IMG/VR virus record: IMGVR_UViG_3300014502_000001
Location: 1 to 64,000 of that record
DNA: 64,000 bases
Reading direction: 5' to 3' (one strand)
Source of the DNA: a virus
Each line of letters opens with the position of its first letter. Position 1 is the stretch's first letter. Under the pieces are notes generated by a model. It was given only the letters and a program-made list of their open reading frames with translations. It did not search any database and was not told the DNA's origin. Below are positions 7,322-12,320 of the stretch, piece by piece. The translations under genes and the position numbers were made by a program.

Positions 7322-9585
7322 GCACGATTGTGAAAACGTCCACGCAGTCGGCTGATGGCCTCATTATTGCTCATGGTGTTCTCCTCGTCATCCGCTTTAT
7401 GGTGACCCCATTTCATGCCCATCACGCCGTGCTCGGAGAGCTTTGTGTGCACAGATTTGCTAGAGCCAAAAACCATAGGCAAATATACAATTCTTCCACC
7501 AGAGATCTCTTTAGCCTCTCGAAGTTTTTTGTATGTCTCCTTGCCTTCATTGAACAGCGTATATCCTTTGATCCACTCCCTGGGAATGCCAGTAGTTATG
7601 ACACCACCATCTGCATTCCTAAGCTCATACCCATACGGCTTTCCAAATATTCTAAATGGCTCACCAGGTAAATGATGTCCAACTGCACGAAATTTCACCC
7701 CAGCAGGAATAAAAAGATGCACTATGGCAGGAATACTGCCAGTTTGTTCAGATCGCATTTCTGCATAATACATCGCTCTGTCTTTTGTGGTTGTCACATA
7801 GACACCACTACCATCACCCATGCTTCTTATGCCCTGAGACAAGATGCTGCTAAGATTGGCCACAGTCGTCCCGTGTAAAACAAGTATGCCGCGCTCTATT
7901 TTTGGTTCATGTCCATCACCCACAACCTCGTCGTCAGCTTTGTGGTGTCCCCACTTCATGCCCACTACACCGTACTCGTCCAGACGCGGGCGCACGCGCT
8001 TTATGCGCCTTAGTCGCGCTCGCGCGCGAAGCAGAGGCGTTACAGCCGCTGTGGTGACGTCCTCTGTTATAGAGTCGTATCGTCTCTCCTCTAATTTGCT
8101 AAAAATAGGATTACCATTGACCCAGCGCAATCTTGCTACTTGAACACGATGTGTTTTCTTGCCTTTTAGTATGGCAACTGCCAATCGTGTATGCCCAGAC
8201 AGAATCAGATATCGCCCATTCAGCTTTGACAACGTGGGATCAGATGATTGGAAAAGAGCAAGTATAGGCGGATCTGTGTCATATGTTTTTGCGCCCTCGT
8301 GGGAATAAGCCTTCAATCCTGCCACAGCAATATCAGCCTGCATAGGAGCAAGATTATCGAGAGGCATATCTCTAAGAGAAAACTTCTTTTTATCAGAATT
8401 GCGAATTCCAAAAATTAACTTTGGCCCAGAGAATCCGAAAATGTCCTTTGTCAAAACAACGTCGGTGTTCTCAGCCCACGGCGCTTTTGATACAGAAAGC
8501 TTGCCAAGCGCATCACCAAATGTCTTCTGGTCTTCGCCTTTGCCGCTGCCTCCCACTTCACCTGTTCCCTGGCCGCTGTGACCAAAATTACCAGAGCCCG
8601 CGCCGCCTTCCTGTAGTGCCTCCCACGCGTGATGTTCAATCCAGCCGTGAGGCAGCTCTCTGTACCGCTGACGAAATATGATCCAGGCTTGCTCGTTGGG
8701 TAGCATTGAGCCGCTAGCCCGCGCCTCGTCAAACAGCTTTACATAGTTGTCGTAGAGCTCCTGGTCACCACCAAATATGTGTTTCAGCCAGAGCCACTTA
8801 TTGTCGCGCGGATCGTGGCCAACGCGGTCAGCCGCCTGCTCGTGAATGTGCTCGTGAGCGGCAGCGGGCTCATCCATCACAGCCATTCCTATGAATACTG
8901 TCATCAGTTTATACTGTTCCATAACAGGCATAGGATCACCATAGCGACCCTTTATGATCTTCACGCCGTGAACCTTTACAACCTTTAATGCGTGAGGAGG
9001 AATTGCTCCCTTCAATCGCAATGAGGAAAGCGACTGTCCCTTGGTGTTAGGATCCTTCTCAAGACGATCAGCATATTCCTTTGTAATGCGAATTTCTATG
9101 ATCACAGGCTTGCTACCAGGATTAGCCTTAGCGGCATAATCGGCAAACACCGCCGCCGCATAAGAACTCTGTGTAAAGAAAACGTGTCCCTCTGATCGAG
9201 CAATATATTCAGGCGCATTGGTCACTCCACCTTGGTCAACACCACTGTGGTGCTGTGGAATAAGTCCCTTCTGCTCAATCTCCTTGACATATTGCTCGGT
9301 AGTGCCGTGATACAGGAGCTTGCGCGACAGCTCTCCGCCCTTGCCACTGCCTCCCACCTCTCCTGTGCCTTGGCCACTATGGCCAAAATTTCCAGAGCCT
9401 GCACCACCTTCATCTAGCTGCTCGTCCAGTTTCAGTGGATCAAAACCCAGCATCCCCACCACATCGGCTGGAGATATGAGCAGTTCTTCATCGTCTGGAT
9501 CAGGCTCGTCACCTGCGCGCCAGTCCACCTTCCTGTCCACGCCCGCTATGCGAACATCATAGTCTATGACCACAGCTTTCTCCAT
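7318..9585 (-). CDS. Tagged polyprotein: acidic peptide | ART(Tpt1-like) | ParB-like | ART(Tpt1-like) | short terminal module
   Basis: LYHGTT..I...GL.P and LHGTT...SIL..GI ART motifs; YLILSGHTRL ParB motif; modules start at E|GGAGSGNFGH or E|(Y/H)GVxGMKWG. Confidence 0.75.
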   Translation of the reverse strand: MEKAVVIDYDVRIAGVDRKVDWRAGDEPDPDDEELLISPADVVGMLGFDPLKLDEQLDEGGAGSGNFGHSGQGTGEVGGSGKGGELSRKLLYHGTTEQYVKEIEQKGLIPQHHSGVDQGGVTNAPEYIARSEGHVFFTQSSYAAAVFADYAAKANPGSKPVIIEIRITKEYADRLEKDPNTKGQSLSSLRLKGAIPPHALKVVKVHGVKIIKGRYGDPMPVMEQYKLMTVFIGMAVMDEPAAAHEHIHEQAADRVGHDPRDNKWLWLKHIFGGDQELYDNYVKLFDEARASGSMLPNEQAWIIFRQRYRELPHGWIEHHAWEALQEGGAGSGNFGHSGQGTGEVGGSGKGEDQKTFGDALGKLSVSKAPWAENTDVVLTKDIFGFSGPKLIFGIRNSDKKKFSLRDMPLDNLAPMQADIAVAGLKAYSHEGAKTYDTDPPILALFQSSDPTLSKLNGRYLILSGHTRLAVAILKGKKTHRVQVARLRWVNGNPIFSKLEERRYDSITEDVTTAAVTPLLRARARLRRIKRVRPRLDEYGVVGMKWGHHKADDEVVGDGHEPKIERGILVLHGTTVANLSSILSQGIRSMGDGSGVYVTTTKDRAMYYAEMRSEQTGSIPAIVHLFIPAGVKFRAVGHHLPGEPFRIFGKPYGYELRNADGGVITTGIPREWIKGYTLFNEGKETYKKLREAKEISGGRIVYLPMVFGSSKSVHTKLSEHGVMGMKWGHHKADDEENTMSNNEAISRLRGRFHNRA

Positions 9586-12320: not shown

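Follow-up and report, generated by a model that had tools for sequence, protein, structure and literature searches.

The first 64 kb of the IMG/VR record IMGVR_UViG_3300014502_000001 (the window, i.e. the whole stretch of 64,000 nt that was analysed) carries on its minus strand an open reading frame (ORF) at 9564..12320 that encodes a protein of 918 aa (P0001). As read from its sequence, this protein is a four-part cargo polyprotein in which a MuF-like anchor, a domain of the ADP-ribosyltransferase (ART) fold and a type IB topoisomerase (Topo IB) follow one another, with conserved tags between the domains. The phage that carries it is uncultured, complete, ~93 kb in size and comes from peat and permafrost. 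With a confidence slightly above even we favor the reading that P0001 is loaded into the capsid, is processed by a protease and delivers Topo IB and the ART domain together with the DNA. Directly observed are the domain identities and the intact catalytic pentad of the topoisomerase, the tags and the sites that precede them, a gene for a prohead protease of the T4 type, and the repeated occurrence of the gene cassette. The original prediction, made from the sequence letters, had described a two-part protein; its MuF-like N-terminus and its Topo IB are both present, and what it missed are the ART-fold domain (residues ~445–620) and the two conserved tags.

The type IB topoisomerase, of the bacterial type, occupies residues 660–918 (9567..10343, minus strand), as indicated by Pfam, phmmer and the relatives. 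The Pfam model Topoisom_I (PF01028) matched residues 705–900 with E 6.7e-17 and 62.1 bits against a cut-off of 23.7 (66 bits in the genome-level search). The model of the N-terminal domain, Top1B_N_bact (PF21338), matched residues 666–694 with 25.7 bits, below its cut-off of 27; the alignment to the Deinococcus radiodurans enzyme (2f4q) begins at residue 664. This enzyme was the best phmmer hit in the PDB (E 7.8e-21), followed by an archaeal enzyme (E 4.6e-7) and the variola enzyme (2h7f, E 6e-5). Residues R759, K797, R854, N895 and Y904 align to R137, K174, R239, N280 and Y289 of D. radiodurans TopIB, and in 34 relatives the five positions are invariant or >90% conserved. The claim of a complete C-terminal Topo IB with the catalytic residues R, K, R, N and Y is thus borne out, and by its sequence the enzyme is apparently active. 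The codon of the catalytic tyrosine Y904 lies at 9609..9611 (minus strand), and the ORF stops 14 residues further on, as it does in relatives.

The ORF is uninterrupted over its 918 codons. A fusion of this kind could be an assembly or frame artefact, given that the genome is a metagenome assembly and that the next ORF, in the −1 frame, shares 22 nt with that of the topoisomerase. However, contigs of four other runs, from different studies, cover the gene at ≥99% identity with zero indels. Single contigs bridge positions 9336–10077, 10071–11494, 9787–10733 and 10607–12183, and thereby join anchor to ART domain, ART domain to topoisomerase and topoisomerase to the next ORF, with all domain junctions and the overlap included. 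Moreover, the topoisomerase ORFs of relatives in 64 parsed IMG/VR loci likewise stop 13–17 residues after the tyrosine, in 58 loci with an acidic motif (discussed below) ~115–150 nt downstream. We therefore take the fusion to be real; the possibility of an artefact, which the original prediction itself had raised, is ruled out by the contigs of the four runs and keeps a negligible probability.

The N-terminal part of P0001 consists of a MuF-like anchor core (residues 1–245; 11586..12320, minus strand), assigned to the family phrog_24776 and characterized by AlphaFold (AF2) modeling, fold comparison and hhalign, and of an anchor extension (residues 246–419; 11064..11585, minus strand). The anchor as a whole reaches to about residue 419, and this entire stretch is common to relatives with different C-termini (P0003, P0004 and P0009 among those with other cargo). 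A cluster of His and Cys residues (H196, C197, C200, C224, C228 and C230; 11631..11735, minus strand) forms a probable zinc site. In alignments of 52–67 relatives W187, C197, C200, P217 and C224 do not vary, and H196, C228 and C230 hardly do; the N-terminal Cys motif reported earlier is hence a real one. The final portion of the cluster aligns with the N-C-R-C motif of classical MuF proteins. The family has 649 members at E ≤1e-3 in a set of 1.8 billion representatives, and 53 of 67 relatives match phrog_24776, whose function is unassigned.

Kinship of the anchor with MuF was assessed by fold and by profile. The AF2 model of residues 1–260 had a mean predicted local distance difference test score (pLDDT) of 89.5. 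In a Foldseek search of BFVD with this model, the named matches were almost all minor capsid, head morphogenesis and MuF-like proteins, plus portal fusions; about half of the top 50 were so named, with probability ~1, E 1e-4 to 2e-2 and low template modeling (TM) scores (0.25–0.55). The same search against the PDB gave nothing below E 0.5, and there appears to be no solved MuF structure in the PDB. An hhalign comparison of the anchor family with a MuF profile gave 91.9% (E 7.1e-7) over 118 columns, with the Trp, the His and the N-C-x-C core matched. That profile comprised 65 distinct sequences grown from SPP1 gp7 and Pfam-labeled MuF proteins, none of them common with the query family; it supersedes a shallower 9-sequence profile that had given 27.6%. 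In Pfam and NCBIfam the N-terminal 420 residues had no MuF match, and no match to PF04233 or PF06152, and so no other MuF, was detected in the complete genome. Since the fold matches in BFVD, the hhalign result and the place of the gene after the portal gene agree, the anchor is, at the level of sequence profiles and models, a divergent zinc-type MuF homologue. The earlier MuF label is upheld in this sense by profile–profile comparison, fold and gene position, with the qualification that the Pfam MuF models miss the domain and all 67 relatives. The 52 long family members carry cargo such as ADP-ribosyl exotoxin, zeta toxin, lethal-factor-like peptidase, kinase-like, DRAT and nuclease domains; among these members Topo IB is found in P0001 only. 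Several anchor-family members also hold Hint/intein domains, either inteins within a head protein or pretoxin Hint modules.

Between anchor and topoisomerase, approximately at residues 445–620 (10461..10988, minus strand), lies a domain that is of the ART fold according to modeling, with H452 in an H-G-S motif. The Pfam PARP model matched the region below its cut-off (E 8e-4, 17–19 bits versus 26.7). An AF2 model built from five sequences had pLDDT 62. When it was compared with the PDB by VIA-align, nearly all of the top 50 chains were ART enzymes (best Z 7.9, root mean square deviation 3.8, 121 aligned residues), including pertussis-like S1 subunits, ART toxins of Rhs type, Tpt1, DarT and PARPs; Foldseek against the PDB gave probability 0.99 and E 1e-2. 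H452 is conserved, a Phe stands where Tyr is usual and the Glu could not be placed. A homologue search with the region returned a single relative (P0252).

Each of the two inter-domain junctions is marked by a tag. The first consists of I-E-E followed by a DUF7211 tag (YGVIGMKWG; 11037..11072, minus strand), with a predicted cut after E419 and the tag starting at Y420. The second consists of L-V-E followed by a Gly-rich tag (residues 622–645; 10386..10457, minus strand), with a predicted cut after E624 and the tag starting at G625. The 25-residue DUF7211 model (PF23847) scored 25.1 bits in P0001 versus a cut-off of 27, and 41.6 bits in the neighboring protein P0249; the motif is of the same kind in all 12 copies. 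Genome-wide, DUF7211 occurs in 12 full copies, spread over at least six proteins, and the Gly-rich tag in three. The codons of the copies differ at synonymous positions only, which indicates that selection acts on the tag peptide. Directly before the tag stands [ILV]-x-Glu in all 14 scored cases (the 15th copy, in a protein of 89 aa, was assessed by eye), at a background of 1.5% per position. The T4 head protease gp21 cleaves after Leu/Ile-x-Glu, and it also removes the capsid-targeting sequences of the T4 internal proteins. The phage encodes a prohead protease of the T4 gp21 family (PF03420, 31.4 bits versus a cut-off of 27; genome coordinates 90215–90676). Cuts after E419 and E624 would yield a 419-residue anchor, a 205-residue ART protein and a 294-residue Topo IB; the last has the size of the stand-alone enzymes of the clade, which bear similar N-terminal leader tags. 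The tags thus probably mark protease sites at cargo boundaries.

The tags are not restricted to P0001. Very basic proteins studded with DUF7211 tags are encoded on the minus strand at 793–1530 and 12339–12608, and outside the window at genome positions 79466–80344 and 91087–91824. The 245-aa ORF at 793–1530 has two full and two degenerate DUF7211 copies, one ORF near 80 kb has four copies and the ORF just upstream of the prohead protease has two. These proteins look like polyproteins to be cut into small basic peptides. Most of the stand-alone or portal-fused Topo IB relatives (P0253–P0277, loci L007–L086) have another leader, of the E-H-P-R...G-K-F type, and a minority have the Gly-rich tag; these differing leaders suggest several interchangeable tag types.

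The arrangement resembles that of T4 Alt and the internal proteins IPI–III in having a T4-type head, ART cargo and a hydrophobic-x-Glu sequence at cargo boundaries. It differs from T4 in that the conserved tag comes after, and not before, the putative cut and in that the cargo takes the form of polyproteins on a MuF-like anchor. To our knowledge, a Topo IB cargo is not known in T4.

The ORF next to that of P0001 encodes a second cargo polyprotein of 755 aa (P0249; 7318..9585, minus strand). Its first 59 residues (9409..9585, minus strand) make up an acidic module, in which 18 acidic residues stand against 6 basic ones; L-D-E and a Gly-rich tag come next. In all, P0249 contains two Gly-rich tags, which are identical, as well as two DUF7211 tags and a pair of ART/Tpt1-like modules (PTS_2-RNA, 27.6 bits, slightly above the cut-off); residues ~200–530 had no family match. 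The two ORFs share positions 9564–9585, the 22-nt overlap mentioned above. No obvious ribosome-binding site is seen ahead of the ATG of the second ORF, which together with the overlap suggests translational coupling.

At least six relatives have the acidic module in frame on the Topo IB chain, 56–75 residues past the catalytic Tyr. Among the 64 parsed loci, the acidic motif accompanies Topo IB in 60, fused to it in two and at the downstream spacing given above in 58. Linkage of the acidic module to this Topo IB clade is therefore confirmed at the sequence level. The partner ORF has ≤100 aa in 36 of 57 cases and, as in this phage, >150 aa in 20 of 57. Given the in-frame fusions, we considered a programmed −1 frameshift that would join the topoisomerase ORF with the next one. 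It was rejected as unnecessary, because the overlap has no X-XXY-YYZ slippery site and the split layout keeps the same spacing in 58 of 64 loci.

Complex prediction for the Topo IB domain with the acidic module gave a score of 0.55, with 0.01 for the best control, runs that agree in ≥42% of contacts and a partner pLDDT of ≥49. Of 80 solved complexes 58 passed the mark, as did 2 of 110 mismatched pairs; passing scores of ≤0.60 belong to 7 of the 80 solved complexes and to both passing mismatches. The models thus lend weak support to binding of the acidic module to Topo IB.

A different account of these genes would be a polymorphic toxin of the MuF type with an immunity partner, where Topo IB and ART target host or competitor bacteria and the acidic peptide protects the producer. 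In temperate phages, a MuF toxin gene usually has a small ORF behind it that is interpreted as an immunity gene (Jamet et al. 2017, PMC5576092), the anchor family does carry classic toxin domains and, as noted, the acidic ORF is short in 36 of 57 relatives. On the other hand, several relatives carry the acidic module in cis, on the same chain as Topo IB, and in this phage it heads another cargo polyprotein, which fits a propeptide better than a separate immunity protein. With its religation residues the complete pentad speaks for a topoisomerase and not for a nicking toxin. In addition, isolate bacterial genomes hardly contain this clade: a scan covering 185,579 species genomes yielded no more than 12 loci, 11 of them on contigs of metagenome-assembled genomes (MAGs) or uncultured bins of mixed phyla. 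We regard the toxin account as improbable, if not to be dismissed lightly. The same scan leaves no usable host assignment, as 11 of the 12 loci are of this kind, and the near-absence from isolate genomes makes prophage carriage look rare.

Relatives of the topoisomerase are numerous in metagenomic viral data. We found 99 long relatives with 40–57% identity in the Topo IB domain, another 554 short relatives at E ≤1e-10, and 222 IMG/VR stretches encoding a relative; matches in the ESM Atlas, with scores <0.9, are leads only. Among the 99 long relatives, fusions to a DUF1073-type portal were seen in 38, to a Pfam MuF domain in seven and to other portals in four; further domains present were NUDIX, ART, zeta and 2H.

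That many relatives fuse the enzyme to the C-terminal end of a portal is compatible with Topo IB acting inside the head near the portal, undelivered, where it would relieve twist during packaging or at the start of ejection. Topo IB requires neither ATP nor metal and could therefore act within the capsid. Still, the conserved acidic partner appears to mask the enzyme, which argues against action on the packaged DNA; cuts at the predicted sites would release the enzyme from its anchor; and the ART domains that travel with it have no obvious capsid role. An action confined to the head is, in our estimate, a little less probable than the toxin account.

An ordinary replication or transcription topoisomerase, fused by chance to a head gene and working in the cytoplasm, unpackaged, would be a further proposal. 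Some cultured jumbo phages (PMC7824862) and a Bacteroides phage do have stand-alone Topo IB genes outside head modules; in the Bacteroides phage the match is a small stand-alone gene among hypothetical genes and not in a head cassette. Those enzymes are, however, only 23–30% identical to the one described here, and the clade of the latter is repeatedly fused to, or located beside, portal or MuF proteins, with tags and acidic partner. Putative replication genes are located elsewhere, with large ORFs at 34–50 kb far from this gene. We consider the cytoplasmic role quite unlikely.

For P0001 as a capsid-loaded and processed cargo carrier, the course of events could be as follows. The MuF domain (residues 1–419) would place the protein in the prohead beside the portal, by analogy with SPP1 gp7 and Mu gpF. 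The T4-type prohead protease would then probably cut after E419 and E624, at the [ILV]-x-Glu sites before the tags, to give the 205-residue ART-like enzyme and the 294-residue Topo IB. The acidic peptide of the next ORF, itself located before a cut site, would probably bind Topo IB and keep the packed genome out of its reach. When a cell is infected, the enzymes would exit with the DNA; Topo IB may relax supercoils of the incoming phage DNA or of the host nucleoid, and the ART enzyme may modify host targets.

An anchor fused to enzymes, combined with tags that resemble head protease sites, suggests that the enzymes are probably loaded into the capsid and delivered with DNA. A virion-delivered topoisomerase had been proposed from the start, and it gains from the position of the gene by the portal gene, from a MuF-homologous anchor whose family carries toxin-like cargo, from the fusion of the clade to portals and MuF, and from the protease-site tags. 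Relief of torsion at ejection or in early transcription, the purpose then proposed, is one candidate role among several.

Several observations weigh against this reading, and we put it no higher because packaging, cleavage, inhibition and activity are all steps that we infer; the same is true of delivery and of the target. The anchor domain gave no match to PF04233 or PF06152 at E up to 10, and none of its 67 relatives matched the Pfam MuF models. The ART model is weak, of low confidence at pLDDT 62, and its catalytic residues are not assignable. The score of the predicted complex falls in a band where passes are wrong oftener than right unless the guess was already likely. The conserved part of the tag follows the putative cut, unlike the targeting sequences of T4, so the tags may do something else. 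A folded enzyme of ~33 kDa would need to pass through the tail. Finally, no cultured relative was found: in GenBank phages a tblastn search with the Topo IB domain yielded four weak matches with 23–30% identity, none of them in a head module. At the nucleotide level, blastn with the gene found nothing in 50,697 GenBank phages.

Known systems share parts of this design. The MuF proteins SPP1 gp7 and Mu gpF and the MuF toxins (PMC5576092) resemble it in a gene that follows the portal gene, an N-terminal anchor, a variable enzymatic C-terminus and a downstream partner; with MuF/SPP1 gp7 the phage anchor also has profile–profile and fold similarity. Unlike in MuF systems, the anchor is missed by PF04233 and PF06152, has an extra His/Cys cluster and belongs to a T4-like head module; its cargo includes Topo IB, which PMC5576092 does not list, and its partner forms the start of a further polyprotein. 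Polyvalent proteins (Iyer, Burroughs, Anand, de Souza and Aravind 2017, PMC5512222) are alike in combining several unrelated enzymatic domains per polypeptide in a virion-gene setting, with predicted injection together with DNA. In P0001 two unrelated domains, ART and Topo IB, are present on one polypeptide behind a head anchor by the portal gene, and ART and MuF, both present here, are hub domains of polyvalent proteins (PMC5512222). Processing by a zincin-type peptidase was proposed there (PMC5512222), unlike the sites found here, which match a T4-type serine head protease.

Among topoisomerases, D. radiodurans TopIB (2f4q/3m4a) has the same two-domain layout and the same Arg-Lys-Arg-Asn-Tyr pentad, with Asn where the poxvirus and eukaryotic enzymes have His. 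It differs from the phage enzyme, which belongs to a separate phage clade with 45–57% identity among its members, has a leader tag and an acidic partner and is fused to head proteins. The virion Topo IB of poxviruses (vaccinia/variola, 2h7f) is likewise of type IB and carried by the particle for early events, as is presumed here. In contrast to the phage enzyme it is a free protein that lacks a head-anchor fusion, tags and acidic partner, and the two are distantly related (E 6e-5).

In the literature we found no description of Topo IB in connection with MuF, portals, virions, capsids or polyvalent proteins, nor of DUF7211. Topo IB is absent from the MuF cargo listed in PMC5576092 (zero mentions), the term occurs only in a reference title in PMC5512222, and the survey of jumbo phages (PMC7824862) has only stand-alone phage Topo I genes. 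Head-anchored phage effectors are known; a Topo IB with its own partner as cargo is undescribed in the literature searched.

The genomic setting is that of a T4-like head module, as judged by sequence: portal, protease and capsid protein are all of T4 families. The record comprises 92,771 bp with direct terminal repeats and is rated complete; a terminal repeat of 123 bp was located, and metagenomes from at least 16 studies on peat and permafrost contain near-identical phage DNA. Almost all long ORFs are on the minus strand. In the order of that strand come the large terminase subunit (16378..18375; PHROGs phrog_9 and phrog_2), the T4-type portal protein of the gp20 family (12615..14321; Pfam Portal_T4, E 2.2e-32), the basic protein of 89 aa with a DUF7211 tag at its start (12339..12608), the 918-aa ORF and the 755-aa ORF. 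The polyprotein gene is thus part of the packaging module, with only the 89-aa gene separating it from the portal gene. The head module extends across the genome ends, where the Peptidase_S77 prohead protease and a gp23-family capsid protein are encoded. Contigs of two other runs (X3 and X6) diverge from the reference at 12332, just upstream of the polyprotein start; strains seem to vary between portal gene and polyprotein gene. Genes for a homing-endonuclease-like protein (92–796) and an HNH endonuclease (3274–3984), both on the minus strand, are found among the head and cargo genes. Between the two groups of cargo genes are genes for a phosphoheptose isomerase-like protein, a phosphoesterase and an endolysin (2796–3296, 4920–5606 and 5435–6100, all minus strand).

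As a broader and more tentative proposition, which we hold at somewhat less than even, this may be a widespread system of tailed phages in which a portal- or MuF-tethered Topo IB is silenced by an acidic, DNA-mimicking peptide, freed by the head protease and injected with the DNA. If true, bacterial viruses would possess an equivalent of the topoisomerase that poxviruses carry in the virion, here equipped with a safety catch of its own. The acidic partner would then represent a naturally occurring protein that inhibits type IB topoisomerase, and the small size of the predicted mature enzyme (294 residues) and of the peptide (59 residues) makes both amenable to direct biochemistry. The tags with [ILV]-x-Glu would be a readable code for head-loaded proteins in a large group of uncultured phages. 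If the enzyme is indeed packaged and delivered, DNA topology would be manipulated by the phage from the first seconds of infection, which could aid entry or transcription of its own genome or collapse the supercoiling of the host chromosome.

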